A DNA stretch of 64,000 nucleotides from a virus (taxonomy: Duplodnaviria; Caudoviricetes). How positions within the stretch are numbered: position 1 is the first letter of the stretch; each line of letters opens with the position of its first letter. The notes under the pieces are model-generated. The model did no database searches. It saw nothing but the letters and a program-made list of their open reading frames with translations, and was not told the DNA's origin. Position numbers and translations under genes: made by a program. Of this stretch, positions 25,781 through 49,167 are shown piece by piece. Location of the stretch: positions 26,553 to 90,552 of the IMG/VR virus record IMGVR_UViG_2706795985_000001. One strand, written 5' to 3'.

Positions 25781-26131
25781 ATGTACGGTGCAATTCATCT
25801 GAGTCAATTGCTGGAACTGGGCGACCAGAATCTCACACGTGAGTTCTTTGGGTATCACGGCTGGCGTATCCTGCCGCTGGACGCTGCACCGGCTGACAAG
25901 TTTGTCGCTGAGATGGTGTTCAAACGTCTTGACGATGTGATGTTTCCCGGCCATACTGTGGCACACGGCTTGATCTACAACGACTCTCGCGGTATCTTCC
26001 GTGATGGTGAGCCTGTACGCACTTCGACTGTGAAGCAGATCGTTGAGATTGACGGCGATCTTTACATCGAAACACGCAACACCATGTACAAGGTGATCAA
26101 CCGAGACGATGTTGAGACACCAAACGTGTAA
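25781..26131 (+). CDS. Hypothetical protein
   Basis: AGGAGG SD before ATG 25781; IYNDSRGIFRDGEPVRTS..ETRNTMY. Confidence 0.6.
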   Translation: MYGAIHLSQLLELGDQNLTREFFGYHGWRILPLDAAPADKFVAEMVFKRLDDVMFPGHTVAHGLIYNDSRGIFRDGEPVRTSTVKQIVEIDGDLYIETRNTMYKVINRDDVETPNV

Positions 26132-26139
26132 AATAGTTG

Positions 26140-26168
26140 TTGACAGGTCGTAAGACCCCTGTTACACT
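26140..26168 (+). promoter_or_regulatory. sigma70-type promoter
   Basis: TTGACA-N17-TACACT. Confidence 0.8.
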
Positions 26169-26200
26169 TACCAAATCAAATATCAAAGGAGAGAAACAAA

Positions 26201-26818
26201 ATGGCACAGATTTCCATTACCCGCGCTTTGGCTGAAGTAAAATCCCTGAACGACCGTATCGAGAAAGCCACTCGACAAGCCGTATTCGTTACAGTGACTG
26301 TTGGTGGCAAGACTACCAATGGTCAAGACCTTCAGACGGCTACCAACCAGTTGAAGGCAAGCTTGCAATCGGTTCAAGACCTGATCGCTCGTCGTCAAGC
26401 AGTTAAGACTGCAATCATCCGTTCGAATGCTGTGGCTACTGTCACCATCAACGGCAAGACTCTGACCGTGGCTGAGGCCATCGAGCGTAAGGGTTCCATC
26501 GACAAAGAGCGTGCTCTGATGTCCGTCCTGCAAACTCAACTGGGTCAAGTACGATCTGTTGTGGAACGTAACAACGTTCAAATGCAAGGCCGTATCGACA
26601 CCATGCTTCAAGCTGCTGTTGGTAAGGAACGCAAGGCTACCGAGGAAGAGCTAGAGGCCATCAGCAAGCCCTACACTGCTTCGAACGTAACCGCTCCACT
26701 TGACCCTAACGGGCTGGAAGCTGTGATCCTGAAGATGGAAGCTGATATCAACGGTTTCTTGTTTGAGGTTGACTTCGCTCTGTCTGAGGCTAACGCCAAG
26801 ACCTTGATTGAAGCCTAA
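26201..26818 (+). CDS. Helical protein of unknown function, DIP1984/septicolysin-like architecture
   Basis: ISITRALAEVK..RI; IIRSNA..TVAEAIERK; EVDFALSEANAKTLIE; strongly biased codons. Family assignment is recalled, not searched. Confidence 0.6.
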   Translation: MAQISITRALAEVKSLNDRIEKATRQAVFVTVTVGGKTTNGQDLQTATNQLKASLQSVQDLIARRQAVKTAIIRSNAVATVTINGKTLTVAEAIERKGSIDKERALMSVLQTQLGQVRSVVERNNVQMQGRIDTMLQAAVGKERKATEEELEAISKPYTASNVTAPLDPNGLEAVILKMEADINGFLFEVDFALSEANAKTLIEA

Positions 26819-26844
26819 CAGCTTTCGGTCTAACGTAAAAGTTT

Positions 26845-27179
26845 TCTCATGCTGCGACGAATTGCCTAAATTCACGCAACCCATTCCTTGGGGGTATATC
26901 CGGGGAGCCTATTTTAGAATAGCCTAATGGCTAATCCAAAGACTAGTGAATATTCTCATTCGCATATGATCGCCTCCGTTTTGAGGAGGCTGTATTGACT
27001 ACGTTCAAAGATCAAATAGGAAAGCTGCAAAGCTAAAAGATGAAGGGCCTTCGAGCCATATAAACCTTTTAAAGATTTAACCAGTATCGATACAAAGCTT
27101 CTCCAAATCTTGGATACATGTTGAGACGTATCTGTGTGACGGACGCTGGCAATGCTACCGAGCTGTCGTGGGCATGAGA
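26845..27179 (+). ncRNA. Candidate large structured ncRNA with AAAG repeats
   Basis: Closing helix UCUCAUGCUGCGACG/UGUCGUGGGCAUGAGA, then AUUGCC/GGCAAU and AUUCAC/GUGAAU, at least five internal hairpins; no plus-strand ORF; terminator directly after. Confidence 0.7.
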
Positions 27180-27186
27180 CCCAATT

Positions 27187-27216
27187 AAAACCCTGCCCTA
27201 ACTGGCGGGGTTTTTT
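27187..27216 (+). terminator. Intrinsic terminator
   Basis: AAAACCCTGCC-ctaact-GGCGGGGTTTT TT. Confidence 0.85.
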
Positions 27217-27228
27217 CACATCTGGGGC

Positions 27229-27256
27229 TTGACAAAGGTAGAGACTGGTGTAGAAT
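27229..27256 (+). promoter_or_regulatory. sigma70-type promoter
   Basis: TTGACA-N16-TAGAAT. Confidence 0.7.
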
Positions 27257-27283
27257 TCGCTCATACAAACAGGAGAGACAAAA

Positions 27284-27628
27284 ATGAAATTCGAAGGCAA
27301 GCTTGAGATAGGTGGTTTGGCTATGATCATTGGTTGTACCAAACCTGAAAACAACTGGATCATCGGCAAGATCGTGAAGATTGAGATGTTCACATCTGTT
27401 GGAGATAACTTGACTTGGCTGTACCCATCGGCTGCGGCCACTGGCACAGTCATAGAAGATACGCCAGAGATTGCAATTTGTTCTGGCCTATCCACCAACA
27501 ATACTACAAATATGGGGCACCCAATTCTCAAGAATCACGTAAAAATCGGAAAGAAATATCTGATGCCTCTACCACCTCTGGAAGAGGAAGAGCTGGTAGA
27601 GGAACGTGAACTGGAGATGTTCCATTGA
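27284..27628 (+). CDS. Hypothetical protein
   Basis: AGGAG SD; acidic tail. Confidence 0.6.
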   Translation: MKFEGKLEIGGLAMIIGCTKPENNWIIGKIVKIEMFTSVGDNLTWLYPSAAATGTVIEDTPEIAICSGLSTNNTTNMGHPILKNHVKIGKKYLMPLPPLEEEELVEERELEMFH

Positions 27629-28289: not shown

Positions 28290-28453
28290 GTGTTTCATTG
28301 CTTGTTTTGATAAACCATACAGATAAGGTAACTTCTCAAGTGGTTAAGTTTTCATCTAGGACAGAAGCTGTACAAGCAAAGGTCGCAATAGAGGAAGATT
28401 TTCGTAAAAGTGTGTGGGCTGTTCGGATAACAATATTGGAGGGGACTGCTTGA
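28286..28453 (+). CDS. Hypothetical protein (55 aa)
   Basis: ATGA overlap upstream and TTGA overlap with primase start. Confidence 0.5.
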   Translation: MSVSLLVLINHTDKVTSQVVKFSSRTEAVQAKVAIEEDFRKSVWAVRITILEGTA

Positions 28454-31251
28454 CAAGTCTGGAGATAGCAAAGAAGTACGGGATAGACCTATATACCTAC
28501 GGTAAGGTTGCATGCCCTAAATGCGAGAGTAAGGGTATGGACAGGTCAGGTGATAATTTAATGGTCTACGGTACAGATGATGTAGGTCGTCACAGGGGCG
28601 CGCATTGTTGGGGTGGTTGTGGTGGTTTTACCATACCGTCTGAAGAGTATCTAGAAGAAAACGGTGTTACAGAAGAAAAGGAGTACAACGTAGTGGGTGC
28701 TGAGTTTAACGATGAGATTCACAAGAAGATGAAAGAGGTGACTACCACAGACTCTAAGGGTTATCGTGGTATTCGTAAAGACACTACAGCAGCTTTTGGT
28801 GTTCGACATGAAGTGAACACACAGACAGGCGAGATTGCTGTCCAATACTACCCTTGCACTATGGAAAGTGCAGACAATGATCATGGATTTATTCTCACTG
28901 GTTACAAAAAGCGTACACTGCCTAAGACTTTTGGCGGCGCACTTGGTGAGACTGGCAAGGAATGTCAGCTGTTTGGTCAGTTCAAGTTTATACGTGATCG
29001 AGGCAAATACTGCCTGATTGTTGGTGGTGAGATTGACCAACTGTCCGCCTACCAGATGCTCGCAGACTACCAGAAAGGTAAAGGCTATGAAGCTTTCCCT
29101 GTCGTATCACCAACCATCGGTGAGACTGGCTGTGAGAAACAGATTGTAGGCCAGTACGAGTGGTTTAACCGATTCGAGCGTATTATCGTCTGTATGGACA
29201 ACGACGCAGCGGGTAGAGAAGCTTCTGAGAAAGTTTGCAAGGCATTGCCTAAGGGTAAAGCTTTCATTATGGAAATGGGCTTGAAAGACCCTAACGAGTA
29301 TTTGAAGGCTAATAAGGAACGTGAGTTCATTTCAGCATTCTACAATGCAGCTCCCTACACTCCAAGTGGTATTGTTGGTAGTGGTAGTTTGATGAAGCTT
29401 ATGAAGGCAGCGGCAGTGACACCTAAGATACCACTCCCACCATTTATGCACAAAGTGCAGAAGATGATGGCTGGTGGTATTATGCTCAAGACTATTACAA
29501 ACTTAGGTAGTGCTTCTGGTTGTGTAGATAAGGACACTGAATATCTAACTCCCCAAGGTTGGAAAAAGTTTGATGAGTATGTTGTTGGTGACCTCGTTGC
29601 CCAGTACCATAAAGATGGCCAGATGACCTTTGTAGAGCCTTTGGAGTATGTTAAAAAGCCTTGCGGAGTCATGACTCATTTCAGCAACCGCTCCACTGAT
29701 CAAGTGCTGTCAGACGAGCATCGGTTTGTATACTACTCTCAGGCCAAGGGTGGTAAGGTTCATATCAAACCTTTTGCGGAAGTGAGAGAATTACATGAGA
29801 GAAATGTGACAGGGTTTCGTGGTCATATTGCCACTACGTTCGAGTATAGCGGGAAGGGTATTGATTTCAGCGAGGGCGAGCTTCGCCTGCAAGTTGCTGT
29901 AATGGCTGACGGCCGGATTGTCAAAGAGGGTAAGGACAACTATACTCAAATGCGCTTCAATAAAGAGCGTAAGTATCTTAGACTTATCGACATGGTTAAG
30001 AAGTTTAAATTGAGTTATGATGACAAGGGTCTTGGAGAAGATGGATACTACCAAGTTATTGTATGGCCAAAAACTCAGGACAAGGCTTATTCTGAGGAGT
30101 TTTACAACGCAACACAGGAACAGCTTCAAATTATCTGTGATGAAGTTATGCACTGGGATGGCTATCTTGAAAATCAGGTATATACTTCCTGCCGTAAAGG
30201 TGATGTAGACTTCCTCCAGTTCGCTTATGCGGCCTGCGACAAGCGGGCGGTGGTTGGTGAAGATAAACGTACTGGTAAGTACAAAGGAGGTTACTGCGGA
30301 GTTCTAAGTGTCAACAAGGCTAGCCATAGCCAGCGTGTCTCTATTCGCAGTGTGGGGGGCAGAGATAAGACTGAGATGAAGGAGTACAAAACCCTTGACG
30401 GCTTTAAATACTGCTTCATGGTTGAGACTGGTATGCTTGTTCTTCGCCGTAACGGTCGAATCTTCATCACTGGTAATACTGGTAAGTCAACAATCGTTGA
30501 CGAGTGCGTTTATCACTGGATTTATCACAGCCCACACAAACCGGGAGTCCTCTCACTTGAAAGTGACTGTGCCCAGTACGGAAACAAGATGTTGTCTCGT
30601 CGTCTGGGACTTAAGCTTGATTTGATTGAAGATGACCAGTATAAGATCGATCTTTTGAATAGTGCTGAGGTTGAAGAGGCAGCTCAGGATTTGTTCTTCC
30701 TGCCAGATGGCAGTCACCGCTGGCACTTGGTTGAGGAGCGTGACGGTTCTATTGAAGATATCAAAGAGAAGATCATGCAACTGATCGTTGCTTGTGAGTG
30801 TAAGGTGATTATCATTGACCCACTTCAAGATATCCTTGATGGTATGAGCAATGAAGAGCAAGCCGTGTTCATGAAGTGGCTAAAAGGCACAGTGAAGAGC
30901 CATGATGTGTCCTTCATTTTGATTAACCACGTTCGTAAGAGTGCAAATGGTGGCAAGCAAAACTCCGCAGGTGCTGATCTGTTCGAAGAAGACTTTGCTG
31001 GTAGTTCGGCAATATTTAAATCAGCAGCCTGTAATCTGCTGTTTACTCGTAATAAAGAAGCGGAAAATGAGGTAGAGCGTAACATAACAAAAATGAAAGT
31101 AACTAAGCTGCGTTGGACTGGCAACACAAGCCCAGATGCAGGACGCTACTACTATGATAATAAGACACACACTTTGTGGGACTTGGACGACTATCTTGAT
31201 AGAAATCCAACTGTAAAGGCTGAGTATCTGGCCAGTCAGCAGGAGGAGTAG
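28450..31251 (+). CDS. DNA primase-helicase (T7 gp4-like) containing an intein
   Basis: Zn finger CPKC..HCWGGC; TOPRIM (VGGEIDQL, CMDNDAAG); Walker A GSASG|TGKS; Walker B IIIDPLQ; TTG start after GGAGGGG. Confidence 0.92.
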   Translation: MTSLEIAKKYGIDLYTYGKVACPKCESKGMDRSGDNLMVYGTDDVGRHRGAHCWGGCGGFTIPSEEYLEENGVTEEKEYNVVGAEFNDEIHKKMKEVTTTDSKGYRGIRKDTTAAFGVRHEVNTQTGEIAVQYYPCTMESADNDHGFILTGYKKRTLPKTFGGALGETGKECQLFGQFKFIRDRGKYCLIVGGEIDQLSAYQMLADYQKGKGYEAFPVVSPTIGETGCEKQIVGQYEWFNRFERIIVCMDNDAAGREASEKVCKALPKGKAFIMEMGLKDPNEYLKANKEREFISAFYNAAPYTPSGIVGSGSLMKLMKAAAVTPKIPLPPFMHKVQKMMAGGIMLKTITNLGSASGCVDKDTEYLTPQGWKKFDEYVVGDLVAQYHKDGQMTFVEPLEYVKKPCGVMTHFSNRSTDQVLSDEHRFVYYSQAKGGKVHIKPFAEVRELHERNVTGFRGHIATTFEYSGKGIDFSEGELRLQVAVMADGRIVKEGKDNYTQMRFNKERKYLRLIDMVKKFKLSYDDKGLGEDGYYQVIVWPKTQDKAYSEEFYNATQEQLQIICDEVMHWDGYLENQVYTSCRKGDVDFLQFAYAACDKRAVVGEDKRTGKYKGGYCGVLSVNKASHSQRVSIRSVGGRDKTEMKEYKTLDGFKYCFMVETGMLVLRRNGRIFITGNTGKSTIVDECVYHWIYHSPHKPGVLSLESDCAQYGNKMLSRRLGLKLDLIEDDQYKIDLLNSAEVEEAAQDLFFLPDGSHRWHLVEERDGSIEDIKEKIMQLIVACECKVIIIDPLQDILDGMSNEEQAVFMKWLKGTVKSHDVSFILINHVRKSANGGKQNSAGADLFEEDFAGSSAIFKSAACNLLFTRNKEAENEVERNITKMKVTKLRWTGNTSPDAGRYYYDNKTHTLWDLDDYLDRNPTVKAEYLASQQEE
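29521..30477 (+). mobile_element. Intein (319 aa) in helicase Walker A motif
   Basis: Starts CVDKDTEYLTPQGW; block B SDEH; LAGLIDADG-like AVMADG and MHWDG; ends FITGN followed by Thr; removal restores GSASGTGKST. Confidence 0.9.
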
Positions 31252-48363: not shown

Positions 48364-49167
48364 ATGCCTGTTAAAGCTATAGTAAAAAAGGACAATTTAG
48401 ATAAATTTTATACAAAAACTAATGTAGCCTTGGACTGCCTGAATCAGTTGTATGCTTACACTGATAGTTGTGACCTTTTTATAGAGCCAAGTGCCGGAGG
48501 GGGTGCGTTCTATAAACAACTGCCCACTGGGTCTATTGGCATTGATTTACAGCCAGAGTGCGACGGCGTAGTACAGTCAGACTGGCTAGATTATAAAGTA
48601 CCCAATAACTGCGTTGTGGTAGGCAACCCGCCCTTTGGGTCAAGAAATTCCCTAACAAATGCTTTTATCAGGAAGGCCCAAGAATCTGCAAAAATAGTTG
48701 CGTTTGTGTTACCATCTGTGTATAGAAAGGAGTCTATGCAGAAGGTTTTTGGCTCCTCTTGGGCCTTAGCTTCAGACCAAGATCTGCCAGAGAATTCATT
48801 CACTTTACAAGGGGAACCTTACCATGTGCCGTGCGTATTTCAAGTTTGGATCAAAGATTTCAAAGGTGTAAATCTTAGGGAAAGCCTGAAAGCTAGGCCA
48901 ACCACTAAAGATTTCACATTTTGCAGCAAAAAAGACGCTACTCATTTTATTTTTGGGGCTTCACCAAAAAAAGTTGTTGACAAAGGACAAGTGACTGAGC
49001 ATAATCGTGGCTACTGGATCAACACCAGCGAAGAGGTGGCTGAGCATCTGAGATGCCTGGACCTCACAGGCAAGGCTTTAAGCAGTGTCAGTGGTGGTGT
49101 TGCTTGGTACGGAAAAAATCAAATCATACAGAATTACTTGGATTGGAGAAAATCTAATGACACCTAA
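48364..49167 (+). CDS. DNA N6-adenine methyltransferase
   Basis: DKFYT, FIEPSAGGGAF (SAM binding), VGNPPFG (catalytic). Confidence 0.85.
   Translation: MPVKAIVKKDNLDKFYTKTNVALDCLNQLYAYTDSCDLFIEPSAGGGAFYKQLPTGSIGIDLQPECDGVVQSDWLDYKVPNNCVVVGNPPFGSRNSLTNAFIRKAQESAKIVAFVLPSVYRKESMQKVFGSSWALASDQDLPENSFTLQGEPYHVPCVFQVWIKDFKGVNLRESLKARPTTKDFTFCSKKDATHFIFGASPKKVVDKGQVTEHNRGYWINTSEEVAEHLRCLDLTGKALSSVSGGVAWYGKNQIIQNYLDWRKSNDT

Follow-up and report, generated by a model that had tools for sequence, protein, structure and literature searches.

The VIPR systems, each consisting of a Vipr protein and a vrRNA (bioRxiv 10.64898/2026.04.26.720920; bioRxiv 10.64898/2026.04.26.720927), are mostly phage-encoded pairs of one small protein and an adjacent non-coding RNA, in which a tandem short-repeat tract is joined to an invariant structured, pseudoknotted part and the protomers polymerise along the repeats. 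The Vipr proteins are RAMP homologues (RRM core, G-loop, thumb), and the vrRNAs, which are about 100 nt long and often present in arrays, are made of 9-16 YNNGG units with a period of 5 nt (GGY/NN) and hypervariable NN. Evenly spaced short units on single-stranded RNA are also read by TRAP on the trp leader ((G/U)AG every 5 nt) and by HutP on the hut leader of Bacillus (UAG with 4-nt spacers, period 7), both of which are oligomeric, beta-rich ring proteins acting on attenuators upstream of regulated genes. In the type III toxin-antitoxin systems (ToxIN, CptIN, TenpIN) of bacteria and phages, a repeat-bearing, pseudoknot-forming RNA with repeats of 34-45 nt comes first and is followed by an endoribonuclease toxin that cuts the repeats. 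Large and intricately folded RNAs of unknown or partly known function (ROOL, GOLLD, OLE, and YrlA with Ro60) are often found near tRNA genes in phages, whereas the DIP1984/DUF6847 proteins (PF20935), of about 150 aa, have had a solved structure (3KDQ) since 2009 but no known function. Here we describe a locus from a Pseudomonas phage (IMG/VR record IMGVR_UViG_2706795985_000001, positions 26,553 to 90,552; this whole stretch of 64,000 nucleotides is referred to as the window) in which a gene for a small helical protein is directly followed by a conserved, doubly knotted non-coding RNA of about 335 nt that bears a row of 7-nt A-rich units. The same gene-plus-RNA pair is present in phage T5, in hundreds of other large phages and in some bacterial chromosomes.

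The gene, the RNA and its fold

The observation made in a preliminary description of this sequence, viz. that a promoter, a 205-aa gene, about 335 nt without an open reading frame and a terminator form a single unit, was confirmed by our analyses. The features of this unit are summarized in Table 1. The strongly biased codon usage noted earlier was also borne out, as the effective number of codons (ENC) of the gene is 41.1, which is the third lowest among 41 ORFs of 150 aa or more (median 50.6). On the plus strand, a 39-aa frame starting with TTG (26808-26927) begins inside the end of the gene, and after it no frame of 30 aa or more is found until 27284. A 191-aa frame on the minus strand (26956-27531) overlaps the region. 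Annotators of related phages have called different small ORFs, or none, at this position. A promoter inside the RNA is annotated in phage KIL2, but none was found in this window by a consensus scan.

Table 1. Features of the gene-RNA unit (positions in the window).
Positions	Strand	Feature	Basis
26140-26168	+	sigma-70-type promoter, TTGACA-N17-TACACT with TG extension	10 of 12 matches; annotated as a promoter at the same place in phage KIL2
26186-26193	+	ribosome-binding site AAGGAGAG, with GGAG (26188-26191) 9 nt before the ATG	read from the sequence
26201-26818	+	gene for the 205-aa helical protein (phrog_1491; T5 ORF080/T5.085 family; DIP1984-like fold)	open reading frame, profile, homology and predicted-structure searches (see text)
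26846-26859	+	P1, 5' strand of the closing helix	pairs with 27163-27178; 6 of 14 pairs changed on both sides; present with unrelated sequences (13-21 bp) in all lineages
26861-26866	+	P2, 5' strand (AUUGCC)	pairs with 27148-27153 (GGCAAU); 100% paired, 3 of 6 pairs changed on both sides
26873-26877	+	P3, 5' strand (CACGC)	pairs with 27134-27138; 4 of 5 pairs changed on both sides
26879-26907	+	5' H-type pseudoknot: ACCC (26879-82) with GGGU (26892-95), interleaved with UUCCUUGG (26884-91) and CCGGGGAG (26900-07)	8-bp stem 100% paired, 5 pairs changed on both sides; 4-bp stem corresponds by eye to ACGC/GCGU in UAVern-type phages, but has no double change in the count; same knot topology by eye in T5, Kamaji, PVP-SE1, Rocket24 and Desertfox
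26908-27002	+	variable hairpin region, insertion site of the family; hairpins AGCC/GGCU (26921-32) and GCCUCC/GGAGGC (26972-90)	least conserved part
27003-27108	+	A-rich tract of 7-8-nt units (NNYAAAG), interrupted by an optional hairpin (27046-57)	AAAG at 27007, 27021, 27029, 27036, 27071 and 27094; 7-nt phasing in relatives; mostly unpaired in the consensus fold; UUCAAAGAUCAA shared with T5
27109-27113	+	Px, 5' strand (CUUGG), preceded by the conserved AAAUC	pairs with 27158-27162; 100% paired in the close relatives; at least 11 different complementary pairs of strands family-wide
27114-27157	+	3' domain enclosed by Px, with the 3' strands of P3 (27134-38) and P2 (27148-53); P2/P3 cross Px and form the second pseudoknot	covariation and inspection
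27158-27162	+	Px, 3' strand (CCGAG), followed by the conserved CUG	pairing and family-wide signature
27163-27178	+	P1, 3' strand	consensus fold and covariation
27195-27216	+	intrinsic terminator	stem plus U-tract; annotated as a terminator in KIL2

To examine whether the non-coding part is a structured RNA, the corresponding regions of 16 related Pseudomonas phages were compared. The consensus fold obtained with RNAalifold contains 47 pairs, of which 20 are compensatory. A curated fold including both knots is 92.9% paired in these phages, and 23 of its pairs changed on both sides, in comparison to 8.9 +/- 1.8 in shuffles (0 of 500 reached the observed number) and 8 or fewer when the partners were slid. 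Further, invariant G-U pairs on the plus strand would be A-C on the other strand, and hence the folded strand is the transcript of the gene's strand.

This fold differs in part from that proposed in the preliminary description. The closing helix P1, placed earlier at 26845-59 with 27164-79, and AUUGCC/GGCAAU were both confirmed. However, two other proposed helices are not conserved. The GUGAAU arm of AUUCAC/GUGAAU lies in an insertion that is found only in the near-identical relatives of this phage, and the conserved partner of 26873-77 is 27134-38 (helix P3), whereas in place of UCCAA/UUGGA the strand 27109-13 forms, family-wide, the long-range helix Px. Both pseudoknots had been missed. The proposed hairpin CUAUU/AAUAG is specific for this window, while AGCC/GGCU, GCCUCC/GGAGGC and GGC-CUUCGA-GCC lie, by eye, where the relatives also have hairpins of other sequence, or none. 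Although the P2/P3 crossing is supported by covariation within the Pseudomonas group, RNAduplex z-scores for P2/P3 across lineages were weak (mean -1.1, with 5 of 20 below -1.64), and family-wide support for this knot therefore rests on inspection together with the covariation in that group.

The AAAG units that had been noted earlier belong to a 7-nt-phased tract. The six sites within 120 nt are well above the mean rate of about 0.9 for the window, but as one other stretch of the window reaches seven, the enrichment in this sequence alone is not unique. The weight of this observation comes from the relatives, where the gaps between units are mostly multiples of 7. The tract is as conserved as the gene or more so (e.g., 95% versus 71% for the gene between Bcp1 and BCP8-2, and 89% versus 79% for the PVP-SE1 pair), and it is almost invariant among 23 T5-like phages. 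The conserved part of the unit differs between lineages (AAAG, UAAU, CAAC, UCAAG).

Distribution of the pair and nature of the protein

The protein matches 739 phage records and 2155 clusters at 50% identity, nearly all of about 205 aa. Every homologue that was examined, in very different phages (UAVern, Bitten, ventosus, T5, Bcp1, PVP-SE1, SeKF_80, Rocket24, Desertfox, WRP3, 254 and Kamaji), has a gap of 340-490 nt behind it, and the earlier suggestion that homologues are followed by long A-rich gaps is correct. From P1 to P1 the RNA spans about 335 nt here and about 345 nt in T5. The Px signature directly follows the gene in 73 of 78 non-redundant phage loci, in comparison to 3.6 in shuffles, 5 of 78 on the reverse complement and 2 of 77 upstream of the gene. 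It also follows the gene in 21 of 21 bacterial loci. The pair was found in all 27 T5-like phage loci that were retrieved. The flanking genes differ between lineages, and in Exiguobacterium and Clostridium they are ordinary cell genes, indicating that the pair travels as a unit. In 16 of 29 lineage groups tRNA genes are present within about 1-3 kb, and in many lineages they follow directly. However, in the present phage the tRNA genes lie about 35 kb away, and hence the link to tRNA genes is not universal. ARAGORN found no tRNA or tmRNA in the window. The family also accepts large inserts such as a tRNA-like module.

Neither the gene nor the RNA is catalogued. A search of the region 26000-27400 against Rfam 15 (including tmRNA, 6S, RNase P, OLE, ROOL, GOLLD and RAGATH motifs) at E up to 10 gave only chance-level rows far below the gathering scores, the T5 locus gave none at E up to 1, and 18 further loci at E up to 0.01 gave only tRNAs, skipping-rope and a sub-threshold YrlA piece. 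The only protein-family match that was found is to the PHROG profile phrog_1491 (E 1.4e-73 over the full length). Although this profile is labelled 'tail fiber protein', nothing seen here supports the name, as the gene sits among early or replication genes and the predicted fold is a helical bundle. Pfam (E up to 1), NCBIfam, PADLOC and PDB sequence searches of the protein gave nothing significant, and no recognised RNA-binding domain was found. An HslU I-domain row at profile level (E 0.003) is coiled-coil noise. Literature searches on T5.085, the T5 transcriptome, its RNA-seq and non-coding RNAs, large phage RNAs, DUF6847/DIP1984/septicolysin, VIPR, conserved intergenic RNAs of T5-like phages and repeat ribonucleoproteins yielded no paper on this pair, and it is not mentioned in the text of the Fremin 2023 catalogue or in two genome-language-model preprints. 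The T5 anti-retron protein Rad is a different, 189-aa Toprim protein.

The AF2 model of the protein (pLDDT 94; a single-sequence prediction reached only 46) is an all-helical bundle with three short beta elements. The conserved patches of the protein include R64/R65/K69 and the MTVAEAIERK motif. The likeness to DIP1984 that had been suggested earlier was borne out as a likeness of fold, since 3KDQ is the top hit both by Foldseek (probability 1.0, E 9e-3) and by VIA-align (Z 11.2, 151 of 152 residues, with the next row at 7.6), the other top fold matches being coiled coils. A profile search against PDB gave E 0.13. As helical bundles readily give middling structural matches, this likeness should be treated with caution and carries no functional information. 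Additionally, the suggested 'septicolysin-type' membership fails at the sequence level, because Pfam and NCBIfam gave no hit and PF20935 does not find the family's gene in three genomes that carry it. The DUF6847/DIP1984 genes in Bacillota are also followed by their own conserved non-coding block.

Interpretation of the gene-RNA pair

The earlier interpretation of this locus as a dedicated ribonucleoprotein, in which an oligomeric protein binds the spaced repeats as TRAP or Hfq rings do, is only partly supported. What our analyses establish is the RNA, its fold, its strand and its strict linkage to the gene, whereas the oligomerisation of the protein, its binding to the repeats, the stoichiometry and the function are only inferred, and the ring picture is an analogy only. 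In the explanation that we favor, although with only modest confidence, one transcript carries both the mRNA of a highly expressed helical-bundle protein, as suggested by the near-consensus promoter, the strong ribosome-binding site and the low ENC, and, starting 27 nt after the stop codon, the non-coding RNA. The two ends of this RNA are clasped together by P1 stacked on Px, by P2/P3 that cross Px and by the 5' knot, and this clasp holds out a largely single-stranded tract of about 100 nt next to the variable hairpin region. Several copies of the protein would dock side by side on the heptad units, roughly one per unit, with the knotted core acting as a fixed cap or nucleation handle. It should be noted, however, that the protein is near-neutral to acidic (pI 7.9 here, 5.2-5.9 in the Bacillus-type and PVP-SE1 homologues) and that adjacency could reflect co-transcription for another reason, for example an RNA that stabilises or regulates the mRNA. 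As the tract is conserved and not hypervariable, such a particle would do one fixed job rather than programmable targeting. Because the pair often sits in tRNA gene arrays, our guess is that this job lies in tRNA, translation or RNA metabolism during host takeover, or in countering an RNA-directed host defence.

A broader possibility, which is not excluded but is slightly less likely than not, is that DIP1984-fold helical proteins are the protein halves of a previously unrecognised class of dedicated ribonucleoproteins. In the phrog_1491/T5.085 branch about ten protomers would assemble on the tract, making a particle that large virulent phages (T5 included) and some Firmicutes use for a fixed task linked to tRNA or translation, or to counter-defence, whereas the DUF6847 branch would have its own, different RNA partner.

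Of the alternative explanations, the one that survives best, although unlikely, is that the RNA is a cis-acting 3' UTR element of the protein's own mRNA, acting as a knotted block against 3' exonucleases or as an autoregulatory site, with no function as a free particle. In accordance with this, the RNA begins shortly after the stop codon, has no conserved promoter of its own, ends at the operon's terminator and always lies 3' of the same gene. However, a doubly knotted RNA of 260-490 nt, whose heptad tract is conserved more strongly than the coding sequence, is far more than mRNA protection needs, the tRNA genes that follow directly in many lineages suggest processing into separate RNAs, and the family accepts large inserts. 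Almost equally unlikely is that the RNA works mainly on its own as a decoy or sponge, whose A-rich units would soak up a host factor such as an RNase, an Hfq or S1-type binder, or an anticodon nuclease, with the protein being only a helper or linked for expression. Multi-site A-rich arrays are how CrcZ-type and CsrB-type sponges work, the pair is often embedded in tRNA arrays, and it is carried by large virulent phages. However, the pair also sits among ordinary genes in Exiguobacterium and Clostridium chromosomes, linkage to the protein is strict, and the differences between lineages in the conserved part of the unit are as expected if it co-evolves with its own protein rather than with one host factor.

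It is very unlikely that the pair is a VIPR-like RNA-guided complex, in which protomers would line the tract and display the variable bases of each unit to read a nucleic-acid target by a gapped code. Although the overall logic is the same, the non-fixed positions of the tract are not hypervariable, and a gapped-code search with six triplets, gaps of 0-5 and four orientations found nothing better than 4 mismatches in the phage's own genome, which is the chance level. A type III-like toxin-antitoxin pair, in which the repeat RNA would sequester many copies of a harmful protein, is more doubtful still. The pair is a stand-alone two-part module in varied contexts, in Clostridium next to a zeta-toxin-like/AAA gene and an HTH gene, and the RNA has many putative binding units per transcript, but no ToxN/Kid-type nuclease fold and no PADLOC hit of weight (E 0.011 to PbeC) were found, and the module's presence at all of the T5-like loci retrieved also argues against this reading. 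Lastly, a DNA-level element such as a replication origin or iterons, suggested by the A-rich short repeats about 1.2 kb upstream of the primase/helicase gene in this phage, is largely refuted by the strand-specific covariation, the near absence of the Px signature on the reverse complement, and neighbours in other lineages that are unrelated to replication.

Comparison with described protein-RNA systems

The RNA and its partner gene are conserved from Pseudomonas, Escherichia, Salmonella and Vibrio phages to Bacillus and Lactococcus phages and to Exiguobacterium and Clostridium chromosomes, and their presence in T5 brings the question within reach of a classic model system. If the pair forms a particle, it would add a new kind of protein-RNA machine to phage biology and would also provide a first functional handle on the DIP1984/DUF6847 fold. 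The genes of that family share with the present one the fold of 3KDQ and a conserved non-coding block behind the gene, but there is no sequence-level membership, and their downstream block has different conserved motifs and no evident heptad tract.

The design of a repeat tract plus a handle echoes that of CRISPR and VIPR RNAs. The P1/Px/P2/P3 core and the 5' knot correspond to the invariant, pseudoknotted part of the VIPR RNAs, but the protein is predicted to be a helical bundle and not a RAMP/RRM protein, the units have a period of 7 with AAAG-type fixed parts and no GGY, and there is one RNA of 260-490 nt closed by a long helix and two knots. In comparison to TRAP and HutP, with which the evenly spaced units are shared, the present protein is helical and its RNA is dedicated, closed and downstream of its own gene. 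In comparison to the type III toxin-antitoxin systems, which are likewise two-gene modules of a protein and a repeat-bearing, pseudoknot-forming RNA, the RNA here lies after the gene and its units are of 7 nt. With the large ornate RNAs the present RNA shares its size and intricate folding, and one family member (Desertfox) carries a YrlA-like tRNA mimic (44.5 bits, E 1e-6). However, no Rfam model of these families matches the loci searched at the thresholds used, and while ROOL and GOLLD are RNA-only cages, this RNA has an obligate neighbouring protein gene.

Genomic setting and folded structure of the non-coding RNA

The sequence analyzed is 98.8% identical to the Pseudomonas syringae myophage vB_PsyM_KIL2 (Flaumdravirus), and at 72-89% identity the gene together with its non-coding part is shared with about 40 Otagovirus and Flaumdravirus phages. 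The record from which the window derives is a 90.5-kb virus genome that contains a single copy of the gene. The arrangement reported in the preliminary description, in which one promoter, a 205-aa gene, a long stretch devoid of plus-strand reading frames and a terminator follow each other, was confirmed by our analysis. Both the promoter and the terminator were detected by a consensus scan, and both are annotated at the same places in KIL2. The 205-aa gene is preceded by a GGAG ribosome-binding site and its ENC of 41.1 is the third lowest among 41 long ORFs, for which the median was 50.6. After its stop codon, the + strand contains a 39-aa TTG frame that starts inside the end of the gene, but no other frame of 30 aa or more up to the next gene, which has its own promoter. 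A 191-aa minus-strand frame overlaps this region. The annotators of related phages have called different small frames there, or none. The positions of these features, and of others that are discussed below, are summarized in the table.

To examine whether the non-coding part represents a structured RNA, an alignment of 16 distinct relatives was constructed, including three phages whose protein is only about 55% identical. The RNAalifold consensus based upon this alignment contained 47 pairs, of which 20 were compensatory. A curated structure was then written and its pairs were counted in the same group. This structure was 92.9% paired and 23 of its pairs had changed on both sides, in contrast to 8.9 +/- 1.8 in column shuffles (0 of 500 shuffles reached the observed number), and when the partners were slid by 1-3 columns at most 8 such pairs remained. 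Additionally, several invariant G-U pairs exist only on the + strand. The folded molecule is therefore the transcript of the gene's strand and not a DNA feature.

In this structure, the closing helix (P1) and the AUUGCC/GGCAAU helix (P2), both of which had been proposed in the preliminary description, were confirmed. However, the AUUCAC/GUGAAU helix proposed there makes use of a segment that only the near-identical relatives of this phage possess, and the conserved partner of the same 5' region lies elsewhere (P3), with 4 of its 5 pairs changed on both sides. Similarly, the proposed local hairpin UCCAA/UUGGA is replaced by a long-range helix, Px, which encloses a 3' domain of about 45 nt that holds the 3' strands of P2 and P3. 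P2 and P3 therefore cross Px and form a global pseudoknot. Near the 5' end, an H-type knot is formed by ACCC/GGGU interleaved with an 8-bp stem. Although the 8-bp stem covaries in the count, the 4-bp stem is supported only by eye, where it corresponds to ACGC/GCGU in the UAVern group of phages. A variable hairpin region and an A-rich tract lie between the two knots. In one relative, phiPsa267, the RNA is interrupted after about 95 nt by an inverted copy of its own 3' part, the terminator and the last 26 codons of the gene, and a complete 3' half follows further on, which represents an inverted partial duplication of the module.

Positions of the features described in the text, in the window or in the retrieved locus named
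Sequence	Feature	Position	Remarks
Window	Promoter	26140-26168	TTGACA-17-TACACT
Window	205-aa ORF	26201-26818
Window	39-aa TTG frame	26808-26927	+ strand
Window	P1	26846-59 with 27163-78	closing helix
Window	P2	26861-66 with 27148-53	AUUGCC/GGCAAU
Window	P3	26873-77 with 27134-38
Window	5' knot, 4-bp stem		ACCC/GGGU
Window	5' knot, 8-bp stem	26884-91 with 26900-07
Window	Variable hairpin region	26908-27002
Window	A-rich tract	27003-27108
Window	Px	27109-13 with 27158-62	CUUGG with CCGAG
Window	Terminator	27195-27216
Window	Promoter of the next gene	27229-27256
Window	Next gene	from 27284
Window	Primase/helicase reading frame	28414-31251 (+)	945 aa; the KIL2 counterpart is annotated as a joined two-piece CDS; the middle part looks like an inserted element, an intein or similar
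Window	AAAG-rich stretch	48851-48970 (+)	7 AAAG sites in 120 nt, the only stretch of the window with more than the RNA tract; presumably coding
phiPsa267 (MT670417.1)	Inverted partial duplication	about 1750-2300 of the locus	tblastn minus-strand hit 2183-2106
Erwinia phage Desertfox	tRNA-like module in the variable region	2244-2307
Metagenomic phage locus L061	Skipping-rope RNA (RF02924)	845-932	protein gene starts at 1201
Metagenomic phage locus L062	Skipping-rope RNA (RF02924)	842-929	protein gene starts at 1201
Bacillus phage Bcp1	Twelve or more tRNA genes	1-1454	run directly up to the start of the protein gene

The protein family and the RNA that accompanies it

The 205-aa protein matches the profile phrog_1491 (E 1e-73), which is labelled 'tail fiber protein', but no match was found in searches of Pfam, NCBIfam or the PDB sequences. 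By tblastn, the protein was found in 739 phage records, which include T5 and its relatives (where it is ORF080, called T5.085 in the annotation of PVP-SE1), Vequintavirinae, Bacillus Herelleviridae, Lactococcus 949-like phages, Vibrio phages and Erwinia jumbo phages. An exhaustive HMMER search identified 2155 clusters at 50% identity, nearly all of about 205 aa. In every annotated example that we inspected, the gene is followed by 340-490 nt without a credible gene, and the gap in T5 shares UUCAAAGAUCAA with the window, along with the same layout.

A simple signature was defined for the family, consisting of RAHYC plus 5 nt, followed after 30-75 nt by the 5-nt complement plus GSWG. This signature is present after the gene in 73 of 78 non-redundant phage loci, whereas shuffles gave 3.6, the reverse complement gave 5 and the regions upstream of the gene gave 2 of 77. 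At least eleven different complementary strand pairs are found at this position, among them CUUGG/CCGAG, CUCAG/CUGAG, CCUAG/CUAGG, CCUGG/CCAGG, CCAAG/CUUGG and CCACU/AGUGG. Directly after Px, a P1 of 13-21 bp with unrelated sequences closes the RNA in every lineage. Although a helix between the bases just after the 5' strand of P1 and the end of the 3' domain (P2) can also be drawn in each lineage, it was only weakly supported by its shuffle statistics.

The gene was also found in 21 loci in bacterial assemblies (Exiguobacterium, Clostridium, Zhenhengia, Herbinix and others), all of which have the RNA signature. In an Exiguobacterium chromosome (Exiguobacterium sp. RIT594) and a Clostridium chromosome (Clostridium mediterraneense), the neighbours are ordinary cell genes, viz. 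a dehydrogenase, an aldose epimerase, LacI and QueH. In Clostridium, the pair lies next to a zeta-toxin-like/AAA gene and an HTH gene, with no phage genes in the 6.6 kb retrieved. The pair therefore travels as a self-contained unit. In 16 of 29 lineage groups, tRNA genes lie within about 1-3 kb, and often the tRNA array begins right after the RNA, whereas in Bcp1 the tRNA genes precede the protein gene. However, the five tRNA genes of the phage studied here are about 35 kb away, hence this link is frequent but not universal. In the jumbo phage Desertfox, the variable region holds a tRNA mimic that scores 44.5 bits (E 1e-6, below gathering) against the Y RNA-like YrlA model. Another orphan phage RNA, skipping-rope (61-63 bits, above gathering), lies about 270 nt upstream of the start of the protein gene in two metagenomic phages.

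With a 65-sequence alignment, AlphaFold2 predicted a long helical bundle (helices 6-26, 44-78, 90-140, 148-162 and 172-200) with three short beta elements, at a pLDDT of 94. The best match of this model among solved structures is 3KDQ, a Corynebacterium diphtheriae protein of unknown function, with a Foldseek probability of 1.0 (E 9e-3) and a VIA-align Z of 11.2 over 151 of 152 residues, the next row being at 7.6. However, a profile search against PDB gave only E 0.13, and the PF20935 model does not recognise the family. The likeness to DIP1984 that was suggested in the preliminary description is thus supported as a fold likeness only. The protein is not basic (pI 5.2-7.9). Genes of the DIP1984/DUF6847 family (PF20935) were present in 15 of 301 sampled Bacillota genomes and, in the 250 nt after each gene examined, they are also followed by a non-coding stretch of about 200 nt with strongly conserved blocks (ACUACC..GYGCUG, GUGAGGGUGGG, the latter extending as GUGAGGGUGGG.A.GGGGA). 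In several of these, a T-arm-like GGUUCRAnnCC hairpin is present, and no Rfam match falls on this stretch, which may represent a second RNA partner family.

Repeat tract and interpretation of the module

In the lineages where AAAG is the fixed part of the repeat unit, distances between AAAG sites are mostly multiples of 7. The fixed part differs by lineage, being AAAG in proteobacterial phages, UCAAG in SeKF_80, UAAU in clostridia and CAAC in Exiguobacterium. The tract is not hypervariable, as it is almost invariant among 23 distinct T5-like sequences, and in pairwise comparisons it is as conserved as the gene or more so (for example, 95% against 71%, and 89% against 79%).

The interpretation in the preliminary description, that the protein gene and the structured RNA form a candidate protein-RNA system, is partly supported by these results, whereas its proposal that the protein oligomerises and binds the spaced repeats is not shown by them. 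Our analysis establishes a conserved, strand-specific, doubly knotted RNA that is inseparable from one protein family over great evolutionary distance. In contrast, the expression of this RNA, its binding by the protein, the oligomerisation of the protein, and the view that multiple copies of it dock on the heptad tract to form a dedicated particle with a fixed, non-programmable job, are inferences, and we consider this view only somewhat more likely than not. Of the alternatives, a cis-acting UTR element and, almost equally, an RNA decoy for a host factor are possible but unlikely. A VIPR-like guide is less likely still, a type III-like toxin-antitoxin pair is very unlikely, and a DNA element can be practically dismissed. 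No Rfam family, the orphan motifs RAGATH-19 and RAGATH-27 included, matched the RNA in the window, in the T5 locus or in 18 other loci that were scanned, and our literature searches identified no paper on this pair, which on present evidence appears to be undescribed.

For comparison with the VIPR systems (bioRxiv 10.64898/2026.04.26.720920), a gapped-code search was carried out for a target in the phage's own genome, and it gave only chance-level hits. The strong conservation of its tract, which is not hypervariable, separates this RNA from both VIPR vrRNAs and CRISPR guides.
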